Below, one piece after another: positions 44,094 to 63,499 of a stretch of 64,000 nucleotides of DNA. The first letter of the stretch is position 1, and every line of letters starts with the position of its first letter. Under the pieces are notes generated by a model. The model was not told the origin of the DNA and ran no database searches. It saw nothing but the letters and a program-made list of their open reading frames with translations. This stretch comes from Lepidodermella squamata. Its lineage: Eukaryota > Animalia > Gastrotricha. The position numbers and the translations under genes were made by a program. The DNA is taken from assembly GCA_047495785.1 (NCBI GenBank), contig JBLDXI010000025.1, forward strand, positions 2,356,001 to 2,420,000, given 5' to 3'.

Positions 44094-44280
44094 AGTAGTA
44101 AGGATGGGAACTTTGGATCAGTAATAGCAGTACGGCGATTTTTACTATAGCCGTTTGGTATAAATATACGCAATTTGCGATCAGTAATGGCAGTACGGCG
44201 ATTTTTACTATACCCGTTTGGTATAAATATACGCAATTTGGGGATGAGTAATAGCAGTACGGCGATTTGTACTATAGCCG
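44094..44280 (+). repeat. Left terminal inverted repeat containing about 2.6 copies of a 63-bp unit
   Basis: The unit GATCAGTAAT(A/G)GCAGTACGGCGATTTTTACTATAGCCGTTTGGTATAAATATACGCAATTTG.. starts at 44116, 44179 and 44243. Confidence 0.92.
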
Positions 44281-44546
44281 CTTCTTGTCAATATACCTTC
44301 GTTTTAACCCACTGCTATGATTTCACCTAACTAAAATAAACAAATCTTCGTTTTTTCACCTGTTATGAGCTAAACTAATCATTTTTACACTGCTTCTTTA
44401 GTGCAGCTGCAATAGAGCCCTTTTTCATTCACACAAACACTTTTTATTAGTCTTAACGTTTCAAGCAATGAATTTATAGCTGGGATAAGTCTTATCAGTT
44501 TTTCTATTCATTTGTTCAGAGATTTGTAGCGGCTTGATTGGAGGGG

Positions 44547-45050
44547 TTAACGTCCAGATGAACCGAATCCGTTATCGCCACGGGTCGAATTTGCTGCTAG
44601 AGCGTTTTTCAATGGCCCCGTTACCGTTACTGCAGATTCTAAGCGACCATATTTTAAACACACCAACTGGGTAATACGGTCGCCTATTTTAATCTTGTAA
44701 GGTGTTTTGCTGTTGTTTGCAAGGCAGACTACGATTTTTCCGGTGTAGTCGGCGTCTTTAATTCATGAAAAATACAGATATTCATTAGTAATTTTCATTA
44801 TTATTTGCTTCTTACCTATTACTCCAGCGACCGTATCGATTCCATGGTTGATGCTCATTCCTGATCGACTGAATAGTTGTCCATAATATCCTCGTGGTAA
44901 ACAGATTTTAATATCAGTTTGAATCAGTCCCCTGGTTCCAGGTTGCAGTGTCGTCTCTTCTGCTGAATAGATGTCCCAACCCACAGAGCCTTTAGTATGC
45001 TTTGTCGGTTCTTTAGCTTTGTTACTTGTTAGCTCTACCTTCAGCTTCAT
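44547..45050 (-). CDS. dut: dUTPase (147 aa); exons 45050-44816, 44755-44547
   Basis: All five motifs are present after splicing a 60-bp GT-AG intron: VGWDI, RSG, GVI|DADYTG, GDRITQL, RGDNGFGSSG. Confidence 0.95.
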
Positions 45051-45484
45051 ATTTTATAATTTATATTGTTACTGAGGTTCGATTTTTATGTGAGCGGCTA
45101 CCTCCTTTCAGGCATATTGTTTTTGTAATTCAATCTTCCTTAAAAATGCATTAGGGCCTTTAGCTCTGTTGACCCCTCAGTGCTGGCTTTAATGCTTTTC
45201 ATCAAAGATTCTTGGTATTGTATACATCCTCCTTAATTGCTGTCGGTAATTCAATAAGAAAACATCATGTCAATAAATCTTATACATCCTCCCTAATTAA
45301 ACAATGCGATTTTTTACTTATCAAAATAAAAAGCAATTAGGATTTTTTACCCTTTACGGTGTAATTACCTTAAACAATTCAAACAAAACATCTCCCTGTT
45401 TTTTCCTTTTATGGAAATATCACTCAGACTATTTAAGAGAGATGCTTCAAGAATACACTTAGCATATTTCTTGAAGCAAGCTGG

Positions 45485-46249
45485 ATGCATCCTAAAGTCT
45501 ACCATTTCGGCATAGTCGGCAACATTGGGGCGTAAGTCTCATATACTCCACCGAATAGAATTCTATTTAAAGTCTCTTGTTTTAGCGGGAAATCAACCTT
45601 AATCGAGGGTCTCACTAATCTACCTTCACTCAACCGTAAACTTCAGGGATATACCGCGTGGCCAATTTGCGAGCCTGTTCATCGTTGGGAGTCCTTTACT
45701 GATGACGATAAAACTAACATTTTGAAAGATTACTATCAGATGAAAAATGCGTTCAACTTTCAAATTGTAGCCACGAGTGATATGTGCGGCCTTTATTCAG
45801 CCCCTAACCACAAACCTGAAATCTACGGGGCGCATACTATCGTTCTGCATGATCGAACGCCCTTCTGTTCTAAAAACGTCTTTATCCCATGTGCGTATGC
45901 ATCCAAGCGCATAAATTCTATCGAATATCACGCTCTCATGAATTTGTATGATAATTTCGAGCCGAATTTTGTAAAAACTGAAGCTATTATTTACTTGCGC
46001 TCCTCTCCCCAAATAGCTTGTCAAAGAGCCGTAGCTAGAGCTCGGGGTTCTGAAATGCTATTATCACTGGATTATTTACGCCTCGTACATGAGTTTCATG
46101 AAAAAATGTGTACTGTTGAGACTACAAACAAATCCCTACCATGTCCCGTGCTTGTTATCGACACTGATAATTTGAATGCCTCTGAGGTTCTAAAGCAAGC
46201 TTCTCAGTATGTTGCCTCTCTTATCACGCCTGTAATCTCTCAGACTTGA
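45485..46249 (+). CDS. Deoxynucleoside kinase (dNK/dCK/TK2 family, 236 aa); exons 45485-45531, 45586-46249
   Basis: P-loop GNIGA|GKST restored by the 54-bp intron; EPVHRW, DRT, IYLRSSP, lid RAVARARGSE, YLRLVHEFHE. Confidence 0.92.
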
Positions 46250-46259
46250 ATCCTCATTG

Positions 46260-46622
46260 ATGGATCCAACAAGACTTGTGCTCTCGAACAGCCAGATTTT
46301 AGACGCTGAATCTTTGCAATGTCCAATTTGTTTATCTATCCTACTTAATCCTATTCAAACGCGCCCCTGTGGCCATTTATTTTGTACTAAATGTGTTCTC
46401 GCTATTTTTCAAAATTCAGCTCGAACAGTATGTTGCTGTCCACTTTGCCGCGAATCATTAACAGGGAAAGATTTCGTTAAACCCCCTGTAATTTTATCGA
46501 ACATTATCTCGAATTTGATTTACAAATGCCAATATTCTGATAAAGGCTGTCCCATTACTCTAACTTATGACCTCATTTTTGGGCATGAAAAGTTATGCCA
46601 ATATAAAGAACCCATCCCTTAA
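46260..46622 (+). CDS. C3HC4 RING finger with TRAF/SIAH-type zinc finger (putative E3 ligase)
   Basis: CPIC...PCGHLFCTKC...CPLCR, followed by CQYSDKGC...HEKLCQY. Confidence 0.88.
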   Translation: MDPTRLVLSNSQILDAESLQCPICLSILLNPIQTRPCGHLFCTKCVLAIFQNSARTVCCCPLCRESLTGKDFVKPPVILSNIISNLIYKCQYSDKGCPITLTYDLIFGHEKLCQYKEPIP

Positions 46623-46664
46623 AGTTTTACATTCTTATTTCATTAGATTTAATTTTCAATAATC

Positions 46665-47186
46665 ATGGCTGAGGCGATAGTAGAATCTGCTAACCAGACA
46701 GTCAATCATCACATGTCTAGTAACTTGGTCATTCAACAGCATCCTCAGGATTCTAATCTCATCTACATAATGACTGATCGCAAAGATAAGAACGATAAGC
46801 CTAAAAAACTCGCCTTTAGACAAGACGAATTTCTTAGCCAGTTCGTTCCTTATTTTCGACCGCCGAATGATGCTTGGGTTGCTCAGGCTCAACTTGCCCT
46901 GCTATCTCACAACACAGGCTTTAAATTTTCGATGCATGAATGCAAAATTGAAGTCTGTGTCTTTGTGCCATCATTTTCACCGATTCTTATAGATATACGC
47001 AGGTTTTATCTGGATGCTAAAGGTATTTACTTCAAATTTACAGTAATAGCAATCTTTTTATGATTTAACTTTTTAGGAAATAAACAACCCTCAAGACAAG
47101 GAGTCTCTCTTGATGCAGCTCAGTTTCAAGACCTTGCAACTGGGGTGTTAACTGTTGCAGCGATGATTGAAACAGCCAATGAATAA
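46665..47186 (+). CDS. PC4/Sub1-like ssDNA-binding coactivator domain protein; exons 46665-47022, 47077-47186
   Basis: After a 54-bp intron the C-terminus reads ILIDIRRFYLDAK|GNKQPSRQGVSLDAAQFQDL, matching the PC4 signature (IDIR.YY...G...P...GISL...Q...L). Confidence 0.8.
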
Positions 47187-47303
47187 GCTAACACAAAACT
47201 TGACTAAAATGACTTACTGAATATTTATTTCAATCTATCCTTGTAATAAAGTTTTACCTCTTCCCAAATTCGATCAATTTTAAATTTTTAATCTTAGATT
47301 GTT

Positions 47304-50300
47304 ATGGATAACTATAGTTTACAATACTCATTTATTCGAAGTAATCGCCTGATTCATTCTACAAAATTCAAAATGTTTTCTGTGGAGTACTTCATTCAGC
47401 CCGTAACATCCGACTTTGCCTCAACCTACATCAACAGATATGGCCAATCTTCTAGTTCGCTTGGGCCGATGATTCAATTGTCTGGTGGCGCTGATGAACC
47501 TCGACTGGATAATATTCGATCATTTGTGCAGAACGTACCAGCCGACCAGGTGGCTAATATTGATTTGGAGACCCGCTTCAATATTCTGGCCAACTTCCTG
47601 TTCGATATTGTTGTAAATATCCATCGTGATTTACCTGTGAATTCCTTCTGCCGGCTAACACTGTACCACCCCGACTTGAAGATGCCTCTTAGCCTACCCT
47701 TCATGAAACGCGATCGGTTGCTGGAAATTTCAATTTTTGATCAACTGAGAAAAATATTACAGAGTAATGAAGAACTCTCATTTGCTGGTCGGTGGACAAT
47801 TCGTCTCTGTGTCATTGATAACCCCAATGCAGATCTAGGTCAAATTGTTGGTGGTTCTCGGGCAGAGCGGGCTATAAACGAAACTTTGGACAAATTTTTT
47901 CTTCGCTCCAAATCGATCGTTAGAATCGGAGCGCGCAAGAATGAAACGAACAATCTTTGCATGGGCAGAGCTCTCATCACTGGAGTGGCTTTGGCTCACA
48001 TGAAGGCGAATCCTACGGATCCATCTCTTCAAGCAACCTTCAAATCGATACGTAGTACGCGAACCAATCGTCAATTTCGCGAAGCCACGGCGCTATATCA
48101 GAAAGCGGGCTTACCTCTCAACCTTCCAGCCTACAATCTAGATGATCATTACTCAGCCCTGTGTTCGGCTATCGATCCTGAACATAATACTTACAGATTC
48201 GTAGTATACTCGTACGAATCACAGGATGTTATTAGGGAAATCCCAGAATTTGATCATCGCGTAAGCCTTGGGTTGCTTCCTGTTGTTCTACTGGTTTATC
48301 GCAACGACGTCTCTCAGCCCAACAGTCATCATTTTCATGTCATTGCGAATCTCAACTTTATGAAGGCCACTCTTAGCAATGCACAACGAATATGCCCCAC
48401 TTGCTTTCAGACGAAAACGAGTACGGCTGTGCACAGATGCAAGTTGGCATGCTCTTCCTGCCGTAATTTTTACATGAAAAACCTGAATTTCACTTCTTTT
48501 ATCATTAATATTATTTTAGGTGTATCAGGGAGCATTTGCCGTGTGATTTCCAACACAGACCAACAAAACTACACGCGGTGTCCGCAATGTCGTGCAGGTC
48601 TGATGTTTTTAACCTTTTCATTATTATTCAGCTCTTTTTATGTTTTTAGTTTTGTATAGCGAACGTTGTAAGCAAAACCACAAATGTGCTAAAAAGAATC
48701 CATGCTTTAAATGCGGGAGGAAATTTGTACATTTTCTCAAGCATGAGGCTATGTGTCCCGGGCGGCGCTGTCACATTTGTCAGGAGCCTTTGAAAGCCAG
48801 CGACGAAGAAAATGGCACACACTTCTGCTTCATGACTCCCTTGGTATACTCATTTTTTTCAGTCCAGCTTTTTTCAAAATACTGTGGTTGGTGTATTTTT
48901 AGCCCTTGAAACCGGCGAATAAACTGGAACGTTATCGTAACCTAGTTTTTTGGGACACTGAGACATTTTCGCCATCACTTGCTGATAACAACAATGAGTT
49001 CCAAGTATGCCTTATCGTTGCAAAGGTCGTATGCATACCTCACTGCATCGAAGCGAGGATTCAGCGATGCCATTCTAGTTGTGGACTTCATATTTTTTAT
49101 GGAAGTCGTCCTCTGGAGGATTTCGTAAACTGGGTGCTTCTACCTATGAATTACCAGTCGATTTATTTGGCTCACAACTCAGCCAATTTCGATTCCTTAT
49201 TATTACTGAAAGAAATTCAAACACGATGTTCTAAAGTGAAGATTCTTCAAAGGCAGGGATCTCTACTATGCATTGATTTCAAACAACAAAAAATCAGATT
49301 TTTGGATTCATATCTCTTTTTTCAATGCAGATTAAGGTAGGTTACCTAAGAAACACTAAGAAACTACATTGCTTACAGGTATTTGTTCAACAACAGGGAT
49401 TTACCAGCAACAATGGGAATCCCAGACAAGAAAACCTTCTTTCCTTACGTCTTATGCACTAAAGAAAAGTAAGTACATCATCAACTTCTTGAGCTATTGT
49501 GATTGAATTCGCTGTAATCCTTCGAGTTTCAATCTCGAATTCCCACAGCTGCCTAATATGATCTACTATGAGCCTGACAAAATGTCTCCTTCTGAAAGAG
49601 CAGAATTTCTAACTTTCTACAACGAAAACAAACTGAAACGGTTCAGTGTTCGCCACACGTTACTGCAATACTGCATACAGGATTGTCTAGTTTTGGAAAA
49701 GGCGTCAATCAAATTTCGGGCGCTAATGCTGGAGTTGTGTTCTACTGATGCCTTTAAAGAATGCATCACACTAGCTTCTCTCACAAGCACATGCTTCCGC
49801 AAGCTGTTTCTTACGAAGGATACATTACCTGTCATCCCGACCGCTGGCTACTGTGGCAAGGATTCACACAGCAGGCTCTCGATAGCTTTTCTTCAATTTC
49901 TGATGGAGTCTGACCCTGAAACTTATGGTTCAATGAAACACGCTCAGAACTCACGTCAAGAAGTTCGAATATCTATACCTGGCCACCGTTATCCTTATCG
50001 CGTCGACGGTTTTGTTGCACGTCGTGATAAAATTCCGAGTGAACCCGATCTGATTGTCGAGGTTCATGGTTGTGCTGTCCATGGCTGCTTGCAATGCTTT
50101 GAGGCCTCACAACTAAATTTTCTATCTGGACAACCAAACGGCGTAGTTTACAAGCAAACCTTGGAACGTGAAGAGTTGTTTCGCTCGAATGGTTACATTC
50201 TTCAAAGCTTTTGGGAGCATGAAATTAGAGCTAGTTTCAAACAACACCCGAGAGCACAGGAGATTTATGATAATCTCACAATAGCTAATGTAATGGAGAG

Positions 50301-52159
50301 CCGTTCGTTTTTCTTTGGAGGTAACTGGAGGTTTTCCCTATTTAATCTTCGCGGGATTAAAACATCATGCCTACTTTTTAGGGCGGGTCGAAGCTTTTCG
50401 TTTAATGGCTATGATTGCCGAATCACACTCAACTTCAGGCGACCAAAATTTGGAAAAGATTGCTCAAATTTGTAAGGAAAGCGGGATGCAAACCAAGGAC
50501 TTCTTATTTCCATCGCCCGATTATTCTATAATTTCCGCCGACTTCAACTCGTTATATCCAAGCTGTATGATGGATGGCTACTATGCAATAGGACCACCTA
50601 AAGTATCCACCTTGGATCTCAGATTAAACAACGAGAAACTGCAGGAGATTTATTCAAAGGAATCTTTTTTTGGTGTCGTACAAGCACGCGTAAGCTCTTC
50701 GCATCTACATATCGTCTCCCTGCTTTCATCATCACCACATTATTTTGCTAGGTATTAGCGCCGAAAAACATCTGGCTACCTGTACTCTGCTTTCGTAGTA
50801 AACAAAACAAGCTCGTGTTCTCATGTTGCTATGCTTGTTCGTCGACTGCAAATCCAAACTTGTGCGTTTCAAGCCGTGAATGCACCCATTCTGATTATGA
50901 AAGGTCCTGGATTGGTTCGTATTGCTCTGTGGAACTGAAGTACGCTACAGATGTTCATGGCTACAGATTGCTGGAAGTCTACGAGGTTAATAATTTTGTT
51001 TAGCCAACTCATGCATGGCTTCTATCAAGTTATTTTTTTTAGATATGGGAGTTCAAGAAGAGCAATACAATTTTCAGAGATTTCATTAAAAGATTCACCA
51101 TTTTGAAGGCCGAATCCTCCGGCTGGCCGCCAAACTGTGCTACTAGTGAACAAAAAGCACAGTATTTGGAGCAATGGGAACGCATTGGTATAACGATTGA
51201 TAGCACCAAGTTGGATAAAAAGAACCCTGGGTTACGCGCGATCGCCAAATTAGTTTTGAACAGCTTTTTTGGTCGATTTGCTATGAATTCTAATCTAGAG
51301 AGAACAGATTATATCAAATCCCCGTTTCTGCTTCAGCAAATGCTAAATAATCCAGCTTTGGAAATTGTGGATATTCAACCACTAGGCTTACTCATCAACT
51401 CTGATGATGTCTCTCGCTTGCGAATTGTAACACGGCCAACCAAAGATGCCGACGTTCCAAATGGATCCACCTCAGTTATAACAGCGGCCTTCGTAACAGC
51501 TAATGCTCGTGTGAAACTGGCTCGTGAGCTGTACCGAGTCGGCCCAAAAAGTGCTATCTACAGCGGTTAGAGAATAGCGCCGCTTATGCTACCAACATCT
51601 CTACGTTTTTTGTCTTTTGTTTTAGACACGGATTCAATTTTTTGCCTTCAAGGGCCTGGAATTACTAAAATTGAGTTCACACCCGTTCTTGGCGGCTTGG
51701 CGGATCAGCTTGATACAGGGCAACGCATCATTGCAATGGTTGTACTGGGCTGTAAGGCATATGCCCTACTTTTTGCTGACGGCAAAGCCAAGCTAATGTT
51801 AAAGGTAATTGCTACTTGTTGTTACGCCCTCTGTTTTTTATTATTTACGTCACGCGCAGGGAATACGTCAAAGTTTTCATTCACGCAGTCTTCTCGATTT
51901 TTTCTTGTTCATCAAGCATGTAATACAAAGTCTCCACGATAACGAAACCAGCGGAAGCGGGGGCCGGGGTGATAACAACAAAAACAGCGTCATCGCTGAA
52001 TTGGATCAGACTCAGTTTAAAAAAGTGCATACTCCGTTATCGGAAATTCATTGTGTTCATATAACAAAAAAGATTCGTTTAACCTATGATAAACGTTGGC
52101 TACGCCCCGGCGATGCTTCCTTTCTAACTTATCCACATGGATATAGCGCTGATCAATGA
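47304..52159 (+). CDS. polB: Protein-primed family B DNA polymerase (about 1424 aa, 11 exons) with N-terminal extension, Zn-binding motifs and a Vsr-like insertion
   Basis: ExoI WDTET, ExoII HNSANFD, FLDSY, ExoIII YCIQD, FFG|GRVEAF, DFNSLYPS, KLVLNSFFGRF, YS|DTDS, KAY. Introns 48463-48519, 48598-48649, 48844-48902, 49337-49396, 49469-49526, 50321-50381, 50690-50751, 50986-51042, 51566-51625 and 51805-51859 give a 4275-nt open frame. Confidence 0.93.
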
Positions 52160-52166
52160 TCGATTA

Positions 52167-53321
52167 TTACATGAATAAACTCCAAAACCCTGTGCCAGCT
52201 TGAAACTTGTTGATTTTATTTATCTTACGCTGTGACGTTCTTCGGAAAAGTTTTCCAGGTGGTGATATTTGTGTTTGATCAGTCATAGAACGTGGCTTTC
52301 TACCGCGCTTTTGACCCTTCCGTGGCGTTGCCGCTGCAGTTGCTGCTCCAGCTAGCTCAATTTCCATCGGTTCAGCGGCAGCGGCTTCTTCTTGTCTTTC
52401 TGCTTGATTATCATCATTATCAGCACCATCTTGCAGCTCTTCACTATTGCTGCCGCTGCTGTCCTCATCGCCGCTAAACGAAGACGACCCTGCTGTTGTG
52501 TTGCTGTCTCGAGGGGCCTGGGGGGTGCGCGCGCGGGGGGTCCCTCCTCTCGTAGGCAGCTGCTCATCATTAGGCCGATCAACAACAACATCATCGTGGC
52601 TGAGGACGGTCGTGGCTGCAGCGCTAGAAGTCGATGATGTTTGCGGGGCAGCGAATAGAAAATCCATTTGAAGATCATCAAATTCATAATTGCTGCTATT
52701 ATCAGTTGAAGGTCGTGGCGTTGTATTAGGTGAAAACTGCTGCTGAAAGCCGCCAATACCCGAATCTCTGTTATAGTTGTTATAGCTAGGCCCGGCCGCT
52801 TGACCAAAATTACTAGATGTTAATTTAGTAGGTTGTTGGCGCGCAAGTTGTTGTTGCTGCTGTTTTTTTGGAGGAGGAGGAGGAGGAGGAGAAGAAGCAG
52901 AAGGAAGCGGCGGCGGCGGCAGCGGAGGAGGAGGAGGAGGAGGAGGAGGAGGAGGAGGAGGAGGAGAGCGCGGCCTCGATTCTGCTCGATCTGCTGGTGC
53001 AGGCGACATTGGAATAGCGGCTGGCGGCTGGCTACTGCCTTGTAAAACTACCAGCTTCTTCAAATTCATAATCTCATGCATGAGTTCGTTACGTTTTCGC
53101 ACTAAATCGGCTGAATTATCACTACTACTAGCGTTGTTTATCACATCCCGGTCTAAAGACTGTAATAGCTGCACTAGTTTGAAAAGCAGAGGATTGCTCA
53201 GCAATGTTTTAGCAGCAATCAAGTCGCTCGCGTTTGGTTGTTGTTGTTGTTGTTGTGCTGGAGTTGGCCCAGGTGTCGCAAGTGGAACAATAGTCATGCG
53301 CTGTGCATAGTTTCGCTGCAT
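52167..53321 (-). CDS. Pro/Gln-rich low-complexity Maverick protein (384 aa), function unknown
   Basis: Long ORF within the structural gene block: N-terminal RMTIVP plus a helical segment, poly-Pro, an acidic stretch, a basic tail, and terminal GTGFWSLFM. Confidence 0.7.
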   Translation of the reverse strand: MQRNYAQRMTIVPLATPGPTPAQQQQQQPNASDLIAAKTLLSNPLLFKLVQLLQSLDRDVINNASSSDNSADLVRKRNELMHEIMNLKKLVVLQGSSQPPAAIPMSPAPADRAESRPRSPPPPPPPPPPPPPPLPPPPLPSASSPPPPPPPKKQQQQQLARQQPTKLTSSNFGQAAGPSYNNYNRDSGIGGFQQQFSPNTTPRPSTDNSSNYEFDDLQMDFLFAAPQTSSTSSAAATTVLSHDDVVVDRPNDEQLPTRGGTPRARTPQAPRDSNTTAGSSSFSGDEDSSGSNSEELQDGADNDDNQAERQEEAAAAEPMEIELAGAATAAATPRKGQKRGRKPRSMTDQTQISPPGKLFRRTSQRKINKINKFQAGTGFWSLFM

Positions 53322-53324
53322 AGT

Positions 53325-53738
53325 TTAGATTCGAAGAAGCCTCTTGAGTTCTGAATAATCAAACTTTAGCCTGGGTGCAAAGGATTTCAATACAGTGGGT
53401 AAAACTGCAAAAAAGGAAGCTTTCGAAGCCTTATTTCGCCTATTGTTCTTGTTGCTATTAAGGCAGTGTCGAATAAAAACTTGCCGGTTGTGCTCGACCA
53501 AATTGACACCTTTTTGTTTCAATTTAGCCAAATCAGGGGCCAGAACAGTACTAGTGCTGCGAAGCCAATACAAGGCGCAACGGCTAAGAAATCGTATAAG
53601 GCTAACAGAGCTAGTTGCTAAAATATCAGCACGCTGACCGGGGTGAGCATGCAATAACCATTTCAATGCAAGAAAAAGCCGCCGTTTTTTATCAAGACTG
53701 AACGATGGTGACGTTGCTGAGGTAATAACTTTATTCAT
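53325..53738 (-). CDS. Small basic Maverick protein (137 aa), possible core protein
   Basis: ATG-initiated ORF packed between the ATPase and the Pro-rich gene. QRADIL...LIRFLSRCAL, a basic cluster and an amphipathic FFAVLPTVLKSF segment. Confidence 0.65.
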   Translation of the reverse strand: MNKVITSATSPSFSLDKKRRLFLALKWLLHAHPGQRADILATSSVSLIRFLSRCALYWLRSTSTVLAPDLAKLKQKGVNLVEHNRQVFIRHCLNSNKNNRRNKASKASFFAVLPTVLKSFAPRLKFDYSELKRLLRI

Positions 53739-53789
53739 TTAACGACGAAAATTGGGCGGCAATGAATCCTTTTATAATAGTACATATCA

Positions 53790-54633
53790 TCATTTCTTTG
53801 AGACTAAAATGTAAGCGTAACCAGGTTTACTACCGAAGCCATTGCTCGAACGAATGCGGAGATTATCCGGAGTAGTTGCACAATTATCCAGTAGCAGTGG
53901 CGTGTGAGATGATTCAGCAGTTGCTTGGTTCAACGCTTCAAGAAGGCCTCGCCAGCCCATTGGGGAACGCCGTTGTGCATATGATCTAAAGCTTGCAGAG
54001 TCGGAAATGCAGCGAAAATAGAATAAATAGTTTGCATTTTGCTATAGAATAGAAAATACATAGAAGAAAAAACAATAATTTTCTGAGGCAAACCAGAATT
54101 TCCCTGCTATTTTTTGCTCGAGTAAACAAAACTTGTTGAAGGAGAATGGTTGTCGTATTCAAGTGCCGCCCTCCTAAAAAAAGCTGTACCAGTGTTTCGT
54201 CTTCAGTTAATAGGCGATACACGTCATCAAATACTAGGCAACAGCGGGGCTGCGTCTCGTTATTGTCGTTGATATAATTTTTTAAGCTGAAGCTATCGCT
54301 ACTGCTGTTTTTTGTGTCTGCTAAATTTACGAATTCAACTTTAATTTTGTGAACTTGCAATGCAGCATCGGCTATGTCATTGTAAATGGGTTGGAAAGTA
54401 GAATAAAAATAGACAATTCTCTCAAAAGGAAGTTCAAAACTGAATGCATCCTGTAGGATTTGAAGCACCAGACTTGTTTTACCGCTCCCCGACCTGAAGA
54501 TGAGTAAATTACACTAAAATATATTGACTTTTATTTCCATCGTCACTTACGGCCCAACAATGAGAATTGTGCTAGGGTGAACAAAAGGCAAAGCTTCATT
54601 TATGTTGCCAGGGCAGCAGCGCAAATCACTCAT
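53790..54633 (-). CDS. A32-like (FtsK/HerA) DNA-packaging ATPase (244 aa); exons 54633-54551, 54493-54094, 54041-53790
   Basis: Walker A GP|SGSGKT restored by a 57-bp intron; Walker B LVFDD; GRH...LLQQ; REIL|QNANY restored by a 52-bp intron. Confidence 0.92.
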
Positions 54634-54636
54634 CCT

Positions 54637-55200
54637 TTATAATCTAACGTTACAGGGTTTTATTCTTTCAAGTGGTCTCATAGATAGACCATAGTGGGAA
54701 TATAATGTATTAAATTTATGATAAAGTACACAGTCTTTTATAAGCAAATTGTTCTTTGATCCAAGCTGATCAAAATGCCTCAAAATTTGGTGCATGTCTT
54801 TACCTCGCGCTCGAAGCATGCTGTAATATAGAGCCCATAAGCCGCAGATTTGTGAAAAAACATGCTGGTAAGACCTATTGCAATGAATGTACGGCACTTC
54901 TGTTTGGCTATTCGCTTTCAAAAAGTTGTCGATATAGAGGTTATGATAGGAAGGGGAAAGGTTAAGGCTATCGAAAAACTCACAGGGCTCATCAGGATGC
55001 TGTGCGCTGTGAACAAACAGTGTGACCCAGTGCTTTCCTGTAGAATTGTATACATTTCCTGTGTTACAGATAATCAATTGTGGATTATTTTTCACAATAG
55101 GAAGCTGCTGTGGTAGCTGATCAGCGGCTACAACAAAAATGTCAAACTTTTTTAGTACTGGATCAATCCGGATGAAATCTTCCAATTCATTGTTGTACAT
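54637..55200 (-). CDS. Adenain-type (C5) cysteine maturation protease
   Basis: ICNT...GKHWV...EFFDS...YQ....QICGLW, giving His, Asp, Gln and Cys. First ATG at 55200. Confidence 0.92.
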   Translation of the reverse strand: MYNNELEDFIRIDPVLKKFDIFVVAADQLPQQLPIVKNNPQLIICNTGNVYNSTGKHWVTLFVHSAQHPDEPCEFFDSLNLSPSYHNLYIDNFLKANSQTEVPYIHCNRSYQHVFSQICGLWALYYSMLRARGKDMHQILRHFDQLGSKNNLLIKDCVLYHKFNTLYSHYGLSMRPLERIKPCNVRL

Positions 55201-55210
55201 GAAAAACTGC

Positions 55211-56701
55211 TTAAGAATCAACAATTACGTCACGCGTTCGTGTGATCTTAAAAAATTTGAATTTTAAGGCAATTTTAATTTTATGAAAAAAGATGATACC
55301 TCAAAAACTGAATCAGTTTCAGTTAATACTAACAGCTGAGTAACAATTGTTGTTTGAACAGCAAAACTCAACTCTACTCTGCAGGTACCTGTGCGTATAA
55401 CTGAGTAATTTTGCAACGAGGAGTTGCGCGATAAATCGAAACCAAAAATTGTGAAGCCATTAATAAACTGATCCATAGTTAACGTAGATGCCTTGAAAGG
55501 GTTATCTGGGTTGATAGCATTGAGAAGCTCCAAATAGACTCTGGTGACATCTCCATTTGCAAAATCCATTTCCAAGGGAGCTGTTGAGTGATGTAGTTCA
55601 TTGCCCAAATAAATCGATATTCGGGATAGCTGGCTGTGTAATGCATTCAATGGATTTTTACCCGCCGTTCCATTCAGGGCGGAATCTTCAAAAAAACAGA
55701 AAAACATACGCCTTGGAAGCTTACCATTAATACATTGTGGTATCTGTTAAACCATTAGAGTTTTAAAAATTGACTTAGAAACGCGCGATGAGCAAACTTA
55801 CACTGTAACTCAAAACACTACTTGGTATGTGAAAAAGCCTTGTTCGAACTCTCATTATAGGATATTTGGCGTTAGTTTTTTCCAGCGCACGCGTATGAGC
55901 AATCACTATGTCCGGCGACACAACAACAGCCCGGGCAATAATTTTTGCAGATTCAATGACGATTGAGTGAGGATCAGCTGTGCTCGGCCCAACCAAAGCA
56001 AAATTGTTAGATGCCCTATAGAGCTTGATGCGGACTTCAACATTAGGTAGAAGTAGCCTATTACACAGCATAGGATCTGCAAACAGGCGTCCCAGGGTGC
56101 ACACAGATTTCCCGCCCTGAACAATTTCCAACCGTTTTTTAAATCCCTCGTTTGAATTGTCAAAATTATCCAGTTTTTTAGCTGTATCAGGATACCAAAA
56201 TTGTGTCTGTAATATCGTGTTTTTTGCATCAGTATTATGAGACAAAAGCGTTGAAATATAGGCCCGATAAGCGTATAATGAATTTTGTTCACTTAAAAGT
56301 TGCCCATTTAGTGAAATCTCGCATGTTTTGAACATTGTGTGGTGGGCTAAACAAAGCGGGGCTTTTTGTAAATTTGTAGCCGAAAGACTAGCCTTATACT
56401 CGTTGTATGCATCGTCAGCTTCGCCAGCATTTTTCTTCCGAGCTTCAGAAGGGGTTCTAACTACTTTCCACTTGAGCATCAGTTGCATGCGTGACAGACA
56501 CAAATAATCATTGTACGGGCCGATTTGAAACTCAATCAGGTTCGGTGAACTATTAAGAGGGGCAATTGGGTAAACATCTATACTTATTTGGTTTTCTTCA
56601 GCAAGCTGTGAAGGCGGTACAGTAAATAAATCTAAATCTGAAGATAATACTATTGAAGAGGCTGAGGCTGGGTGAACAAAATTATCTCCAAAGCCTTCCA
56701 T
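55211..56701 (-). CDS. Double jelly-roll major capsid protein (459 aa); exons 56701-55802, 55743-55300, 55246-55211
   Basis: SDLDLFTVPPSQ, IEFQI, YAYRAYISTLL, RLLLPNVEVRIKL, AKYPIMR, GKLPRRMFF, KNPLN, GFTIFGFDLS, FE|ITRTRDV. Two GT-AG introns (58 and 53 bp). Confidence 0.92.
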
Positions 56702-56734
56702 TACAAATTTGAAGAATCAAACGCAGCAATGGGC

Positions 56735-57277
56735 TCAAGACGCTTCAAATAGCACTGATTTAGTTGTTGCGCGTCTTTTCCTTTTATAAGCCTTTCTTTT
56801 TGTAGTAGAAGCACGGCGCCTACGTTTTGCAGTCACACTACTAGTTTTACTAGGGCCACGACGACGGCGCCTTTTACGGCCACCTCCACCGCCTTGATGT
56901 TGCTTCAAAGCCGTTTCAGCAATATCCTTAGCCATGTTTAAGGCGCCTGAAGTGCCATGACGCTTAAGGGATTCGGTAAAACTAGGTCTAGCGCCCTCAG
57001 GTTGTTGCATATCACCTAATATTTTTTGGCCAGTAGATAATGCTTGTTGAAAAATAGACGGAGCAATTACTGGGAAGAAATTTCTGAAAAAGGCACCTAA
57101 TATATTTCCTATTCCCTGACCCCTATAATGATATGGAAATTGAATTGTTGCCCCACGGAAATGGTCCAGGTTAGCACCCGCTCCAGCTCCATAGCCTGCT
57201 ATCAGCGGGGAGGAGTGTTGGCGGAGAAAAAACTGCTGGTACTTGTCAACGTTTTGGTTAGAATAAGCTAGGGGCAT
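56735..57277 (-). CDS. Maverick core or membrane-active protein (GxG cleavage motif, amphipathic helix, Arg-rich tail)
   Basis: FRG...YRGQGIGNILGAFFRNFFPV and QGGGGGRKRRRRR. Located between penton and MCP. Confidence 0.8.
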   Translation of the reverse strand: MPLAYSNQNVDKYQQFFLRQHSSPLIAGYGAGAGANLDHFRGATIQFPYHYRGQGIGNILGAFFRNFFPVIAPSIFQQALSTGQKILGDMQQPEGARPSFTESLKRHGTSGALNMAKDIAETALKQHQGGGGGRKRRRRRGPSKTSSVTAKRRRRASTTKRKAYKRKRRATTKSVLFEAS

Positions 57278-57315
57278 CTTCGGTAATATTAATAATTAGA
57301 ACTCAGCCACTTATA

Positions 57316-58536
57316 TTAATATAAGGCTCCGGTTTTTCGGCGAATATGAAGTAGCAATACAACTTTGCTACCATCCACAAAATCGATCAATGCCCCGTTA
57401 TCGCGGCGGATTTGAACTTGAATTGAATCTATAAAATTGGCTTTTAAAGGTAAATATAGGCCCGAGTTATAAATCACTGTAAAATGTGATGACAAGTCTG
57501 AATTTGCCGTAGCAGAAGCCATCGTAGAATAGGTTATCATTCGAAGGAGGCTAGCTTGGCAATCTCCAACAAAAACATCCGCTGCAACTGAGCAGTAAAT
57601 GAACAGTGAGTTATTGCCATAATTCAACTGAATGTTGTATTGAGCTGTAGCACTTTCTTCATAGCATGCATAAATAAAGGCAGGCGGTAAATCATTATCT
57701 TTGGTGATTACTGTTTGCTCAGAAAAATCAAAGTGCTGTGCTGAATTTACGCCTTCTTGATTTTCTACCGCCGCTGTCTCATTATTTGCATCCTCCTTAA
57801 GTTTTGGTCTGCTAGAAAGCCTAACAATCCCAACTGAGTTGAATAAAATGTGTGGATTTTCACGAATTTGGTGGCTCATATTCCACGCATATGCCAAGGC
57901 ATACGTTGACTTTATATCAAAAGTGGAAACTTCATTAAATTCTGGCTCGTCATTTTTTGGGGCCTTGGGAAAAATGAAAACTCCAGACGGTGTATTCTGT
58001 TCTATTGGAGACACAAAACCTAAGAGGCCAGCAGAATCTGAAGGTATAAACATAGAATATGGCCATTTACAGGTAATTTTAGTTTTTTTGTTGACTGAAT
58101 CATAATGAGCAAAAATAGAGCCATTACTACTTGAGATGGATATTTTTTCATTAAAGTGATCGATTAGTTTGGTTATATTCGCAAAATATTCACCTCCGAA
58201 ATTTACTTTGTTAATAAAGCCAGTTTCCCATGGATTGTTGAAACTTTTCATCCGATGTGGCAAAGAGCCAGGATTTGTTAAATAATTAGCAATAATGTCG
58301 TTTTTAAAAGATTTCAGCCAGTTACAATCAAGCACATAGACTGTATGACGATCAATGCTACTCCACCTAACAGGAATTGTAGCCTCAAGTAGGGCTACTT
58401 CATAAGCACGGCAATCGGGTACGCAAATTGGGACAGGGAGAGCAACTTGATAATCCGACGGAGTATTCGCCGGATGTTGAGAATATGAGGCATTCGAGGG
58501 TAAATAAATAAAGAAGTCCTCCTGGATGCTAAGCAT
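57316..58536 (-). CDS. Minor capsid (penton) protein, 406 aa
   Basis: N-terminal FFIYLPSNAS...NTPSDYQVALP...YEVALLE; C-terminal LFIYCSV...VGD...LLR...YLPL...I.VQIR...G..IDF...LHIRR. Confidence 0.88.
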   Translation of the reverse strand: MLSIQEDFFIYLPSNASYSQHPANTPSDYQVALPVPICVPDCRAYEVALLEATIPVRWSSIDRHTVYVLDCNWLKSFKNDIIANYLTNPGSLPHRMKSFNNPWETGFINKVNFGGEYFANITKLIDHFNEKISISSSNGSIFAHYDSVNKKTKITCKWPYSMFIPSDSAGLLGFVSPIEQNTPSGVFIFPKAPKNDEPEFNEVSTFDIKSTYALAYAWNMSHQIRENPHILFNSVGIVRLSSRPKLKEDANNETAAVENQEGVNSAQHFDFSEQTVITKDNDLPPAFIYACYEESATAQYNIQLNYGNNSLFIYCSVAADVFVGDCQASLLRMITYSTMASATANSDLSSHFTVIYNSGLYLPLKANFIDSIQVQIRRDNGALIDFVDGSKVVLLLHIRRKTGALY

Positions 58537-58732
58537 TTGTTATGTTATCCTTATCTATCTTTTCTAAAGTAAGGATTGCGCTGTTGCCAAAAGGGGGGAG
58601 CTTAGTTTTGAATAAATAGTTTGAAATTTCTATAAGCCAAACGGTTATTAGAAGGAAAAAAATGTAGGCCCCTACACGCACAGATGGCTTTTGTAGGAAA
58701 GCTAAGAGTGGAGTCGTAGGAACTCTATTCAT
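58529..58732 (-). CDS. Small predicted single-pass membrane protein (67 aa)
   Basis: Start overlaps the integrase stop (ATGA) and the end overlaps the penton start. Hydrophobic segment VGAYIFFLLITVWLI. Confidence 0.55.
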   Translation of the reverse strand: MNRVPTTPLLAFLQKPSVRVGAYIFFLLITVWLIEISNYLFKTKLPPFGNSAILTLEKIDKDNITNA

Positions 58733-59940
58733 GAGGCCAAGGTTTTGATCTCGTTTGCATCAATCCAACTAGCGGCTTCAATCGGCCAGTTTTGCCATTT
58801 CACAAGAGCCTGTTTCTTGCCATTTATAGTGCGATGCTTCAGAACTTTTTCTATTAAATATGTTTCTTGCGGATGTGCTATCTGAAGCTGCCAATCGTAA
58901 AAACTACCTTGAATACGCTTATTCAGAGTATCACGGAGATAATACTTGTCGGGGATGGTACAAGTATCTATGCGGTCGATAAAAAAATATTCTTCAGTAA
59001 AAATGAAATCTCCTTCTTTGTGAAATAAATCCTTTACACGACTAATTCTAACACAATCACCGACAGAAAAAGTCGGTTTGTATAGTAAATTCTTGCGCTT
59101 TTCAAGCATCAATTGATCTCTTTTTCCAAAAACATTATTGTAAGCAACCAAATTTATAGGATCTTCTGGGGAAGCTAGCCATAATTCTAACGGGGCAACC
59201 CTAGTGCTGCGATTTTTCATTTGATTGTAAGACGCTAAGAAAAAAGGTAAGTAATCGATGTAACGCAGCGTATGATTTGCAATTTGATGCCTCGAAATAG
59301 TTCTACGAAGCCAACGGTTGAAAATTTCTATGGGTGAACACTTGAACATGGAGGTTGTAGTGTAATAATAAACATTGAATTTTTTAAATATTTTTTTAGC
59401 TTCTTTGTTGATAAATTCTCCGCCAGAATCTGTAGTGAAAGAGCGGCAACGCAAATCAGGTGTTAGGCTGCTCAAAAAATTACTGATCTTCTCAGCAGTG
59501 TAATTTCCTTCTTTGTTAAGTAAGGGAATACAGAAAGCATAACGCGTAAAACAGTCTTTGATTGTAAGTAAATAGCGGGTTCCATCATTATCTTGGCTTG
59601 AATCTTGAACTTCAAGAAGATCACCTAGAAAGAGGTCACTTCTAGCATAAACTTCATATTGCATGAATTGCTTCCGGTTTCTTACACTTAGTGGTTTATA
59701 TAATGAATATGTTCGATCATGGCTCATAATCTCAGCTAGTTTTTTATGAGTAAGGGAATTTCTCAGCTCTAAGGGTAATGTAGCTTTAAGTGTTGAGTAT
59801 AATCTGCGCAGGCCTTGAAATGATCCAACATGTTTCGGATCATTATAGAAGCTCAAAACAAACGATTTCAAGTCTGACCTGTGGTTTATTTTAGCATCTC
59901 CTTCAGCTAGACGTCTCGCATTGTGTTTATTACGTGGCAT
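58729..59940 (-). CDS. Retroviral-like (RVE) DDE integrase with C-terminal chromodomain
   Basis: GDLL, TDSGGEF and IEIFNRWLR form the triad; FSVGDCVRIS...F.K, GSFYDWQLQ; chromodomain YLIEKVLKHR...LVKWQNW...SWI. Confidence 0.95.
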   Translation of the reverse strand: MPRNKHNARRLAEGDAKINHRSDLKSFVLSFYNDPKHVGSFQGLRRLYSTLKATLPLELRNSLTHKKLAEIMSHDRTYSLYKPLSVRNRKQFMQYEVYARSDLFLGDLLEVQDSSQDNDGTRYLLTIKDCFTRYAFCIPLLNKEGNYTAEKISNFLSSLTPDLRCRSFTTDSGGEFINKEAKKIFKKFNVYYYTTTSMFKCSPIEIFNRWLRRTISRHQIANHTLRYIDYLPFFLASYNQMKNRSTRVAPLELWLASPEDPINLVAYNNVFGKRDQLMLEKRKNLLYKPTFSVGDCVRISRVKDLFHKEGDFIFTEEYFFIDRIDTCTIPDKYYLRDTLNKRIQGSFYDWQLQIAHPQETYLIEKVLKHRTINGKKQALVKWQNWPIEAASWIDANEIKTLAS

Positions 59941-59943
59941 GAC

Positions 59944-60213
59944 CTAATTCTTCTTTATAGCTAATTTACGGCAAGTAGGGACAACCGAACAATTAGCCAT
60001 GTGGCTAAATAAATCACCGTTTAAGTGGAATAATAAATCATTTATATTATATAACATCCGCTCAGTAGACTCGACAAGTTGCCGCAGGTGAAGGAGTTCG
60101 GCTTGAGTATTGCGAACTTCCATAACAGCGAAAAAGCTGATTAAAATGGTAACCAGGGATAGCAGCAATAGGATCGGTAAAACAGCACGCGGAATATCTG
60201 TTGTTTGATGCAT
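59944..60213 (-). CDS. Small membrane-anchored coiled-coil protein (89 aa)
   Basis: N-terminal hydrophobic helix (VLPILLLLSLVTILISFFAVM), a heptad-like segment and a C-terminal Cys pair. Stop lies 3 nt before the integrase ATG. Confidence 0.6.
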   Translation of the reverse strand: MHQTTDIPRAVLPILLLLSLVTILISFFAVMEVRNTQAELLHLRQLVESTERMLYNINDLLFHLNGDLFSHMANCSVVPTCRKLAIKKN

Positions 60214-60377
60214 AATAAATTACGAAGACTTTAAAAACGGGGAAATTTACCGATAGCCATATTTTTATTTCTGCTGCGAATTTTGAAAATTGATAGATAA
60301 TGATGAAAGTAGAAATAATGATTTTAGCTTAAAAAAAGACGGCACGCGATTAATCTTCCCTCATTCATTAAATCATT

Positions 60378-60977
60378 TTATTGTTGTTTGATATACAGAA
60401 AAAAAGGCGCCAATTTAACAAATGCTATTTTTATAAGAGATAACGAAAAACAGCCGCTCATAATCATTTTTCCAGTGTGAAACAGTGTGGCAGATACATT
60501 TAACTTTGGTTCATTTTCATTAGTGCTGACTTTGGAGAAAACACGTATACGCAACCCAGGAAAAAATTCTGGTTGGTAAACGCATATTTTAGGAAATTGA
60601 AAAGCTAGCAGGCTAAGATTGACAGTTTTATGTAAATCGTAGAACAATACTATATTAGTAATTATTGGGTCACGGATTATCAACCGTCGATTAACAATTT
60701 TTCTGAGTGTAGCTTGAAGAACTCCAAAAGCAGTAACACAATTCGAGGCTGTTTTGGTACCACTACAAATTATAGCTCCGGATGAAAATAATAAAAACGT
60801 CGCGTTAAAAGCAGGTACTTTATAGAACAAAGCACTCGACATTTTTTTTGGGTTATATTTTGCACAAGGTAAAATTAGGGCTAGACTATCTAAATTAAAT
60901 AGAAAATTTGACCTTGATTTAGCCATAATATTTGAAATAGAGTAATCAATATCATATTGTATATTATTTACTTCCAT
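60378..60977 (-). CDS. TATA-box-binding-protein homologue (core 199 aa from ATG 60977; frame open to 61157, true start uncertain)
   Basis: Two TBP repeats: ISNIMA...NLDSLA...KYNPKKM...FLLFSSGAIICSGTKT and ITNIV...VNLSLLA...YQPEFFPGL...TLFHTGKMIMSG. Confidence 0.9.
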   Translation of the reverse strand: MEVNNIQYDIDYSISNIMAKSRSNFLFNLDSLALILPCAKYNPKKMSSALFYKVPAFNATFLLFSSGAIICSGTKTASNCVTAFGVLQATLRKIVNRRLIIRDPIITNIVLFYDLHKTVNLSLLAFQFPKICVYQPEFFPGLRIRVFSKVSTNENEPKLNVSATLFHTGKMIMSGCFSLSLIKIAFVKLAPFFLYIKQQ

Positions 60978-61060
60978 ATTTAATGGTGGGGATTTCAATA
61001 GAAAAAAAGGTTCAGTGCTAGATTGTAGCTTTAAATCAACAGGATAGGATATAGTCAAAT

Positions 61061-61489
61061 TTATGATCGTGGTCGACTGTGATGCGGCTGATTGAAGGCT
61101 TGTAACATACTTGATTTCAGCTGTTTCTGTTTGAACTTTGCGATAGGTTGAGGGCAAATCATGACCAAAAAAGAGGCGACAGAATCTTGCTTTCGTGACT
61201 CATGATTGGTAATTGGAACAGCTGGTTTATTTTTCGCCTTGCATGGCGTTTTCGCCGATTTAGCAACTGATTTCTTCTCAGTACCTATGACTTTTTTCTG
61301 AATTTTATGTTTAGCATTGCGTTTCGGTTGATTACGAACCGCAGTTTTTGCTAATCTAGAGGCTGATGTTTGTTCAACAGGTTCCTTGGTAAACGTACTC
61401 GTATTCGGTTCATTCAGGTTTATTGGTACGAAATCATTGTTAGAAAAAAACAATGGAGAAGCCGGAGATGAATTGAAGAAAGCTTCCAT
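61061..61489 (-). CDS. Basic low-complexity ORF; either a separate gene or the 5' exon of the TBP homologue
   Basis: ATG at 61489 (MEAFFNSSP...), Lys-rich, overlapping the TBP frame. A weak candidate phase-0 intron 61165-61110 (56 bp) would fuse the two. Confidence 0.45.
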   Translation of the reverse strand: MEAFFNSSPASPLFFSNNDFVPINLNEPNTSTFTKEPVEQTSASRLAKTAVRNQPKRNAKHKIQKKVIGTEKKSVAKSAKTPCKAKNKPAVPITNHESRKQDSVASFLVMICPQPIAKFKQKQLKSSMLQAFNQPHHSRPRS

Positions 61490-61657
61490 AAATTCAGTAA
61501 GAAGAATAATATTCAAAGTTCTTGCGTTTGAAATGAAAAATGATCGAATGACGGAAGCCGGCCGCGGTGATTGGTTGGAGTTGCTGAGCCCCAGAACCTT
61601 CTGATTAGGAATGAATAAATAACAAAGGCATTATATAAATAAAATAAACTGACCAAA

Positions 61658-62464
61658 TTAGGTCGAAGAGCTGTTGTTGAAAGGTAAGACGGTAGCGACA
61701 GGTTGTAGTGCGATGGAGCGTTGCATGATGCCCGGCCATTTACTATTCGCACCTTCCTGCTGACCATTAAGAACATCGATGACTGATGCCCATGGAATTT
61801 TCTGAGCGTGTTGATAGGGTGGAGGTACGACGTTCTGCATTTCTACTGAGACCCTACGACCTGCCCGAAGTAAAAGGTAGAATATGTGCCGCAGGTTTAC
61901 GCTGACACCATTAAAGTTTTTTAACAAATCGTAAAATAAATGTTGGATGTAGATATATCGGCCTTCGGTGTAGGTAGGGTGTGCCGTTAGGCCATACCAG
62001 AAACTTTCTTCCAGGCCAGACACAATAATAGGGTTAGGGCTATCGTCGAGGCAATCATCCAAAAGGTAATCACTTTCAGTAAAAATAATTGAGTGACAAA
62101 TGGACGACCATAAATCATCCTGGCGAACAAGGAGCGTGGTAGTATCATTTAGGATGCTCTTCCATAAATCATGCCCAACGATGGAAGCACAGGTAGCTAA
62201 ATTATATTCGGCAAAATGTTGAAAATTCGTGCCATCGTGGGTTGATGGGAAGAGACGAGCAACGGCTCTTTTGTAGCCGAGATAAACATGATCGATAGTA
62301 ATATGTTGGCCTTTCGAGTTGGCAATCAAATCGAATATGGCGACTTCAGCGAATGTAATGCGTCCAGAGAGGGTATTTAGTGATATATTTAATGATTTCG
62401 GAGGAAAAAGTAAATCTTCTCGGTAGAAAATCGCTTCATAAGATTCATCATAGCCAATAATCAT
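61658..62464 (-). CDS. Hypothetical protein (268 aa)
   Basis: Long ATG-initiated ORF of globular composition inside the TIRs. No motif recognised. Confidence 0.65.
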   Translation of the reverse strand: MIIGYDESYEAIFYREDLLFPPKSLNISLNTLSGRITFAEVAIFDLIANSKGQHITIDHVYLGYKRAVARLFPSTHDGTNFQHFAEYNLATCASIVGHDLWKSILNDTTTLLVRQDDLWSSICHSIIFTESDYLLDDCLDDSPNPIIVSGLEESFWYGLTAHPTYTEGRYIYIQHLFYDLLKNFNGVSVNLRHIFYLLLRAGRRVSVEMQNVVPPPYQHAQKIPWASVIDVLNGQQEGANSKWPGIMQRSIALQPVATVLPFNNSSST

Positions 62465-62544
62465 AGCAACTTATTTGACCTTGCTATCCCTACCTTAATC
62501 TTTGCTTTTATTCGATTTTCCTTGAGTAAAAAAATGTTTCTTAT

Positions 62545-62790
62545 ATTTTTTAGATTACAGTTAAGTTGGATTGATAGGAGAAAGTAAAGTTTATTTACAA
62601 AACAAGTTAATGGACATATCAGGAAAGAAAGGAGTATTTATAAATGCTAATGGCCAAAGTAAAAAATATTTATTATATTTTAGATTAAAGTTAAGGGGGA
62701 TTGATAGGAGAAAGTAATGTTTATTTACAAAAAAGGTTAATGGAAAGTAAGGTGTATTTATATAAGCTAATGGACAAAGCAGGAAAAAAG
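62545..62790. repeat. 130-bp imperfect tandem duplication in a divergent intergenic region
   Basis: GGATTGATAGGAGAAAGTAA.GTTTATTTACAAAA...GTTAATGGA...GTATTTATA...GCTAATGG.CAAAG occurs twice (TTGATAGGAG at 62571 and 62701). Confidence 0.8.
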
Positions 62791-62857
62791 ATGAGCTAGC
62801 TTGAGTTCTTAGATTACTGTATCTAATCAAGTATCTTTTTGGAAACTAAGAAAATTG

Positions 62858-63133
62858 ATGGAAGCAGAAGACATGTAAGTTTGGTTCTTTTTTAAAAAAT
62901 CTTGAATAAATTCTGTTATGTTTAGTCGTGAACGCTTATATCAAGCACTGCTAAGCATTGACCATCTGCAACGAGCAATGACAGCAGCTATAAACGAAAT
63001 GTTGAACACACAATTGGAGGTTGAACAATTGATCAATGATGCATCACGATTTATGATAGCAACTCGAGCAAGAGATCAGGCATGCAGCCTAGATTGTGGT
63101 GATTGGAATTGTAATTACTGTTACAAAGATTGA
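62858..63133 (+). CDS. Small helical protein with Cys-rich tail (74 aa); exons 62858-62874, 62926-63133
   Basis: ATG GAA GCA GAA GAC AT|GTAAGT...TTTAG|T CGT gives MEAEDIRERLYQ...CSLDCGDWNCNYCYKD. AATAAA follows the stop. Confidence 0.65.
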
Positions 63134-63314
63134 AAAATTAAAAATAAATTATCATGTGTGCATTTTTTATATTACAAATTAATTCCCAGAAAGAATGCAA
63201 AAGCATGACTCATAATAGTTTTAGAAAAAAAGTATGCCCGCTGTATATTTTATCATAAACATTGCGTACATTTATGGGGCAATGGATAAAACGCACTTAT
63301 ATATTTATGTGAAA

Positions 63315-63499
63315 CGGTTATAGTAAAAATGACCGTAGTGCTATTACTGATACAACGCTCGTATATTTATGCCAAATGGCTATAGTAAAAATCGCCGTAC
63401 TGCCATTACTGATCCCAAATTGCGTATATTTATACCAAACGGCTATAGTAAAAATCGCCGTACTGCCATTACTGATCCAAAGTTCCCATCCTTACTACT
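63315..63499 (-). repeat. Right terminal inverted repeat with about 3 copies of the 63-bp unit
   Basis: Reverse complement of 44094-44280, near-perfect distally and diverging inward. Confidence 0.92.

Follow-up and report, generated by a model that had tools for sequence, protein, structure and literature searches.

A divergent TATA-binding protein homologue carried by a Maverick/Polinton-type element of the gastrotrich Lepidodermella squamata

What might a TATA-binding protein (TBP) do inside a Maverick/Polinton-type element, and is its gene a selected part of that element or a decaying host copy? The question is raised by the window analysed here, a 64,000-nucleotide stretch of contig JBLDXI010000025.1 (GCA_047495785.1), in which an earlier note had recognised such a gene from the letters alone. 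The control of Maverick genes and the switching on of their capsid genes are not described in the literature searched, and an element-borne TBP offers a testable handle, since the protein is small, boxes that it might read can be named, and public data show the element to be transcribed and spliced.

Architecture of the element

The features of the element are listed below by their positions in the window. The capsid and core labels are putative and follow from gene order and sequence motifs.

44094..63499, no strand: Maverick/Polinton-type element, 19.4 kb, ends AGTAGT...ACTACT
44094..44298, plus strand: left terminal inverted repeat, three 63-nt units, two with TATAAATA (44159, 44222)
44547..46622: dUTPase (minus strand), deoxynucleoside kinase and RING finger (plus strand); Pfam E 9e-15 and 5e-10, 1e-21, 4e-7
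46665..47186, plus strand: PC4-like gene, split by intron 47023-47076 (RNA joint)
47304..52159, plus strand: gene for a protein-primed DNA polymerase B with 1424 codons in 11 exons, four of whose frames match Pfam DNA_pol_B_2
52167..58536, minus strand: virion module with putative capsid, core and protease genes, the ATPase and frames of 137 and 384 aa
from 54633, minus strand: packaging ATPase, Pox_A32 E 3e-7
54637-55200, minus strand: putative protease, Peptidase_C48 E 0.034, below cut-off
55264-56701, minus strand: putative major capsid, two frames
56735-57277, minus strand: putative basic core protein
57316-58536, minus strand: putative minor capsid
58729..59940, minus strand: retroviral-type integrase with chromodomain; Pfam rve E 1.7e-5 (below cut-off), Chromo E 6.4e-7
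59944..60260, minus strand: small gene, interrupted by intron 60198-60250, whose product has a hydrophobic stretch
60378..60977, minus strand: TBP homologue, 199 aa, single exon, without N-terminal extension
61061..61489, minus strand: basic orphan frame of 142 aa, just upstream of TBP; best Pfam E 0.025, below cut-off
61658..62464, minus strand: orphan of 268 aa, with intron 61601-61653 after its stop and a poly(A) loose end at 61404
62531..62744, minus strand: 84-nt repeat in two copies that lie upstream of the 268-aa gene; both copies contain TATAAATA on the minus strand (62642, 62762)
63298..63499, minus strand: right terminal inverted repeat, three units of 62-63 nt, one with TATAAATA (63434)

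The terminal inverted repeats (44094-44233 and 63360-63499) share 96% identity over 140 nt and bear (AGT)2 ends, the end motif found in PMC8097293. As the earlier note had claimed, their units carry TATA boxes: TATAAATA occurs in two of the three left units and one of the three right units, reading inward, and CATAAATA in two further units. A target-site duplication was not found at this copy, where the flanks differ at 4-8 nt (44088-44093 vs 63500-63505); two copies may have been joined in the assembly, or the sequence may have changed later. In a sequencing run that we take to be RNA (X2), what stands before 44093 is a different sequence, which hints at insertions elsewhere.

The polymerase gene is joined by ten GT..AG joints in X2, with introns of 52-62 nt, and stays stop-free and in phase over its 1424 codons. 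The kinase, PC4-like and dUTPase genes are spliced too, and the intron of the 268-aa gene starts four bases behind its stop codon. Overall, this is apparently an intact, intron-rich element of Maverick type. In the available text of PMC8097293 and 10.1101/2023.08.22.554363, vertebrate and nematode Mavericks likewise have a protein-primed polymerase, integrase, ATPase and AGTAGT inverted termini, as well as a protease, of which this element has a putative counterpart. However, those Mavericks are described (PMC8097293, in the part available) as intronless and with 6-bp duplications, the two features by which that paper defines an 'intact' element, and TBP goes unmentioned; the present element is rich in introns, lacks the duplication at this copy, and bears a cargo of TBP, dUTPase, kinase, RING and PC4-like genes. 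The dUTPase, kinase and RING genes, in the left arm, form a set for nucleotide supply of a sort more usual in larger DNA viruses.

Several assignments are tentative. The PC4 gene of the earlier note is weakly supported, by a Pfam PC4 match below the cut-off (E 0.33, exon 2 only) and by a putative PC4 motif in exon 1. The putative capsid and core frames had no family match in Pfam and further family searches; the same searches placed the 268-aa orphan in no family, and its protein-atlas score was under 0.9.

As for the surrounding host DNA, a gene next to the element matches hillarins, best those of molluscs, brachiopods and annelids (54-60%), with a tardigrade hillarin at 48% and one record at 81%; from this the host is probably a spiralian, and one with short introns. 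By inspection, region 36200-43700 appears to be a tandem host gene cluster (repeat spacing 1.1-4.9 kb) with a nuclear-receptor-like zinc finger, and the multidomain host genes of 1-15000 and 32012-33769 seem to consist of many modules of Kunitz-like, PAN-like and trypsin-like kind, with linkers rich in Thr.

A minimal and divergent TBP

The minus-strand frame 60378-61199 runs for 273 codons from stop to stop without interruption, and its first ATG, at 60977, gives the 199-aa protein. An AATAAA overlaps its stop codon and an ATTAAA stands just before its ATG, as in tightly packed viral genes. Pfam TBP (PF00352) matches the protein in two stretches (E 3.4e-24; 84.9 bits vs a cut-off of 22.9), that is, as two tandem repeats encoded between the inverted termini, which bears out the main claim of the earlier note. 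A PDB sequence search returned 35 matches, all TBP or TBP fusions; the best were archaeal, which we rejected as a signal of origin. A model made on an alignment of 133 TBPs has the TBP saddle with high scores (pLDDT 93.1, pTM 0.85) and superimposes on TBP-DNA structures with a TM of about 0.8 and an rmsd of about 2 A, although its support for the fold is partly circular because it was built on TBPs; the single-sequence model had no fold (pLDDT 37). On this evidence the protein is predicted to form the DNA-bending saddle.

The sequence is, as suspected, far more divergent than cellular TBPs are from each other: it is 26-29% identical to six cellular TBPs that share 60-81% among themselves, and of the 69 rows that fall on the eukaryote/virus side of the first tree it is the one farthest from a plant TBP. 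The motifs YNPKKM, LFSSG, YQPEFFPG and LFHTG are all present in the alignment, and so is the insertion in repeat 2, where the stretch from FPG to the last Phe motif measures 23 residues vs 13 in most matches. Several divergent TBP matches have an insertion at the same place.

For the individual residues we use yeast numbers, transferred through an alignment to plant TBP anchored on P191, and a table of 17 canonical and 41 divergent TBPs that leaves out nine rows of 50-55% identity. Residues M46, F64, F139 and F166 of the element protein occupy the four intercalating positions; the first Phe (F99) has thus become Met and three (F116, F190 and F207) are kept, as the earlier note had read them. 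Also kept are both central Asn (N69 and N159), T112, L114, P191, R196, K211 and E188. The DNA face lacks four of its basic residues (K110, K120, K201 and K218), S163 is replaced by F, and the three residues that specify base 2, I194, V203 and L205, have become R, S and T. The helix-2 basic patch of the N lobe retains one of its five residues (K145), having lost K133, R137, K138 and R141. In the stirrup facing TFIIB, which had been called partly kept, E188 is indeed kept and E186 is replaced by Q135.

With three of the four Phe, both Asn and a pI of 9.7, the protein probably binds DNA; the loss of the four basic residues together with S163 to F means that binding may be weak. The changes at I194, V203, L205 and F99 suggest an altered sequence preference, base 2 of the TATA box being set by I194, V203 and L205 according to the available part of PMC1636458; the element thus holds a natural TBP variant changed at all three of those positions. 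PMC7221094, as far as its text was available, assigns the N-lobe basic cluster to contacts with TFIIA, TAF1, Brf1/2 and Mot1 and the two stirrup glutamates to TFIIB, positions that we match only presumptively to the yeast numbers used here. If the match is right, the vanished helix-2 patch would imply a loss of TFIIA, TAF1, Brf and Mot1 contact, and E186 to Q a weakened or rewired contact with TFIIB. The same paper reports, in that text, that viral TBPs keep the DNA face while the N-lobe basic patch and the TFIIB glutamates are eroded.

Transcription and promoter words

Run X2 is presumed to be RNA; it has GT..AG joints and poly(A) ends, neither of which occurs in the DNA-like run X1. One X2 contig of 1422 nt covers 60251-61414, and with it the whole TBP frame, ungapped and without any other letter. 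At the depth of this same contig, 60197 is joined to 60251, and the ends of the joint mark the minus-strand intron 60198-60250. Therefore, a spliced transcript in the sense of TBP spans the whole frame. The X2 contigs give neither transcript starts nor levels. Among the three runs with spliced joints, which come from two samples, X2 alone covers the TBP frame; X3 and X4, both from one sample, are without coverage. No RNA contig lies over the integrase region; we draw no conclusion from this or from the lack of X3 and X4 coverage. Depth in X1, which may come from the source sample, is 1500-2800 along the element, a range without host baseline, and no other letter occurs within the TBP gene.

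The candidate intron 61165-61110 of the earlier note, which would join the 142-aa frame in frame with TBP and move the start to 61489, is not supported: the one X2 RNA contig spanning it is ungapped there, so the intron is not removed in that contig, and the acceptor is poor, since of 20 bases 6 are pyrimidines, vs 11-15 in eight RNA-supported introns. With 15 of 35 joints listed, a minor form spliced in this way may exist. The poly(A) site of the 268-aa gene lies inside the 142-aa frame; therefore, this frame and TBP need either read-through or a promoter of their own. Spliced, polyadenylated transcripts, together with family scans that found no RNA polymerase gene in the element, suggest that the element uses host RNA polymerase II. 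Nucleocytoviruses, by comparison, often carry an RNA polymerase of their own.

Does the element have promoters that a TBP could read? In a set of 15 start codons, which leaves aside those of the kinase and polymerase, TATAAA lies 5-120 nt before six (1.9 expected, p 0.006), and before four of the eight virion and integrase genes (1.0 expected, p 0.013). On the other hand, an unbiased test over all k-mers upstream of the element genes found none significant (p 0.21-0.79), plain TATA is not enriched there, and TATAWAW is no denser in the element (1.5 per kb) than in the host flank (1.9 per kb). The counts for TATA[AG][AG], at six of eight and nine of 15 genes, belong to a word chosen after looking and are not taken as support. 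TATA-type promoters in the element are thus weakly supported.

The upstream words are of host type (TATAAAAG) and therefore need no special factor; the k-mer and spacing tests give no support to a private promoter word of the element. These words stand 8 to 109 nt before the ATG, some of them (at 8, 15 and 19 nt) closer than a box at about -30 would allow, the spacing given in the available part of PMC4422821. TATAAA stands only 8-19 nt before the ATG of the ATPase, integrase and dUTPase (54633-54641, 59940-59959, 45050-45065), where it could be an initiator-like word.

Proposed role, rival readings and relatives

In the reading that we favour, at little better than even confidence, the TBP is a viral promoter factor that works with host RNA polymerase II out of reach of the regulators of host TBP. 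The element, which encodes and transcribes its own minimal TBP, would use it to mark its own promoters for the host polymerase, to escape host factors that grip normal TBP, and to help switch on the virion genes. The gene, its place in the element, its transcription and its residue pattern are observed; the fold is predicted and the role proposed. The earlier note had offered this role together with a decoy and an origin-binding protein; the promoter factor is the best reading of the evidence, and the other two persist as rivals.

A precedent is found in herpesviruses, whose TBP mimics drive late genes with host polymerase II according to the available text of PMC12529657. As in our proposal, ORF24 of KSHV, a TBP mimic of the beta/gamma-herpesvirus type, is the TBP-fold protein of a nuclear DNA virus that relies on the host enzyme. 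However, ORF24 has additional domains for binding polymerase II and DNA, acts in a six-protein complex and reads TATTWAA, whereas the element protein is a bare 199-aa saddle without extra domains, and for the element no distinct late word is established. TFIIB is the second point of comparison. Almost all TBP-bearing viruses covered by the available part of PMC7221094 have their own TFIIB, whereas Pfam and further family searches found no TFIIB-like gene among the frames of this 19-kb element; a remote TFIIB-like protein among the orphans of 268, 142, 137 and 384 aa is possible. We regard as doubtful the bolder idea that intron-rich animal Mavericks have a private minimal initiation complex, in which TBP reads a rewired core-promoter word, the 268-aa or 142-aa orphan replaces TFIIB and the PC4-like protein assists, the whole making an independently evolved, herpesvirus-like early-to-late switch on host polymerase II. 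If it were true, a 19-kb endogenous virus would operate such a switch.

Possible, though unlikely, is a dead-end competitor that occupies TATA boxes, or ties up a partner from the host, but assembles no productive initiation complex; in this way it would repress defence genes of the host or early promoters of the element itself. The change of E186 to Q would remove a salt bridge to an Arg of TFIIB, no viral TFIIB was found among the frames, loss of the patch used by Mot1 would make the protein hard to evict, and canonical TATAAATA boxes are present in the termini and before the 268-aa gene. However, E188, P191 and the shape of the stirrup (YQPEFFPG) are kept, and a protein decoy would be expected to keep its partner surfaces and lose its DNA face, the opposite of what is seen.

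The occurrence of TATAAATA in three of the six terminal repeat units, and of CATAAATA in two more, also fits an architectural protein that bends DNA at the terminal repeats and so aids protein-primed replication, or else integration or packaging, while the PC4-like protein would bind single strands. The erosion of the surfaces for transcription partners agrees with this, as does the fact that adenoviruses use host transcription factors at their origins. We nevertheless find such a function rather improbable: it leaves the retained E188 stirrup without a role, the inward-facing boxes are equally well explained as promoters, and most described Mavericks replicate without a TBP gene, none being mentioned in the available text of 10.1101/2023.08.22.554363 and PMC8097293.

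Still less likely, in our view, is a redundant supplement that does the work of host TBP, together with host TFIIB at ordinary TATA boxes, and would do no more than raise the supply in cells short of free host TBP, either because there is little of it or because inhibitors bind it. Host-type upstream words, three kept Phe and E188 speak for it, but an identity of 26-29%, the loss of all but one of the five basic residues in helix 2 and the change of every base-2 residue go beyond what a plain substitute would tolerate.

Finally, the gene might be a recently captured, decaying host TBP, the case that the earlier note had named against itself. At 17 columns of the family alignment with more than 90% conservation the element protein has the commonest residue in 16, vs 10 of 66 columns below 40%, and its conservation follows the family profile (Spearman 0.41, p 1e-8). 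In simulations of random decay to 30% identity, none of 2000 runs remained stop-free. Since near-invariant positions and the predicted saddle persist at 26-29% identity, the evidence supports a real, long-selected TBP and not a decaying recent capture. A decaying capture confined to this copy is thus highly improbable, although the gene has the lowest GC of the element genes measured (0.32), lacks a close relative and can be joined to animal-type TBPs (see below), given that it is open, intronless and transcribed and that the DNA run shows no other letter within it.

As to relatives, none of 104 candidates is close to the element TBP; the top three of 1193 matches are 29-34% identical, and none of the 150 best listed exceeds 40%. 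A profile search with the protein returned mostly canonical TBPs, a phage collection gave no match, and the top cluster in the protein atlas is a TBP cluster of 54 members, 58% of them eukaryotic and most commonly from Nematoda, which we take as a lead only. Quick trees join the element TBP to short TBPs outside the cellular clade (SH-aLRT 84-96). However, constrained trees score as well as or better than this grouping; therefore, we claim no origin. In the phylogeny that the earlier note had suggested, carried out here on a set that holds no TRF2 sequences, none of the joins compared was rejected: p-AU was 0.46 for animal-type, 0.47 for all cellular, 0.53 for archaeal and 0.65 for large-virus TBPs, the last represented by five nucleocytovirus-type loci, with four long rows left out of the constrained-tree tests.

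The element protein shares its fold, two repeats, N69/N159, F116/F190/F207 and E188 with cellular TBP and TRF2, from which it differs in identity (26-29% to cellular TBP) and by its lost partner surfaces; TRF2, according to the available part of PMC4422821, has lost the TATA-contacting Phe, of which the element keeps three.

Viral TBPs are already well known, and a description of one in an animal Maverick was not found in the literature searched, which lies outside subscription papers, Repbase and the bioRxiv supplements, where it may be listed. The available text of 10.1101/2023.08.22.554363, 10.64898/2026.10.13.758929, 10.64898/2026.06.19.733378 and PMC8097293 mentions neither TATA nor TBP, and the section of PMC8502044 on accessory genes of animal adintoviruses does not include TBP in the part available. 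The earlier note's statement that TBP is not known as a Maverick gene must be qualified all the same. For midsize viruses whose PolB is adintovirus-like, 'TBP' is listed in the legend of Fig. 5 of PMC8502044, which belongs to the section on non-animal datasets, and in those of Figs 5 and 6 of bioRxiv 10.1101/697771, as far as these sources were available. These MELD viruses (Starrett et al.), which are related to Mavericks and have midsize linear dsDNA genomes, would thus carry a TBP-like gene as this element does, a likeness by label only, since the available text gives the abbreviation in a legend without analysis. Interest in the present gene is tempered accordingly: TBPs are familiar from viruses, the label is already in print for a related group, and the function proposed here is a matter of inference. 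The element would nonetheless extend viral TBPs to some of the smallest genomes.

A search of a viral contig collection, poor in animal genomes, with the TBP, the integrase, the capsid candidate and two further proteins gave no match. Among 119 loci fetched through TBP profiles no other TBP-bearing Maverick was seen, which is no evidence of absence since animal genomes are few there; the element-type genes in them were a kinase in one contig and one weak RING match. Nucleocytovirus and mirusvirus TBPs resemble the element protein in being minimal and two-lobed, with the DNA face kept and the N-lobe basic patch eroded. In one of the loci, on a large-virus contig (L007, 8911-12058), a deoxynucleoside kinase, a TBP and a gene that looks capsid-like by inspection lie next to each other.
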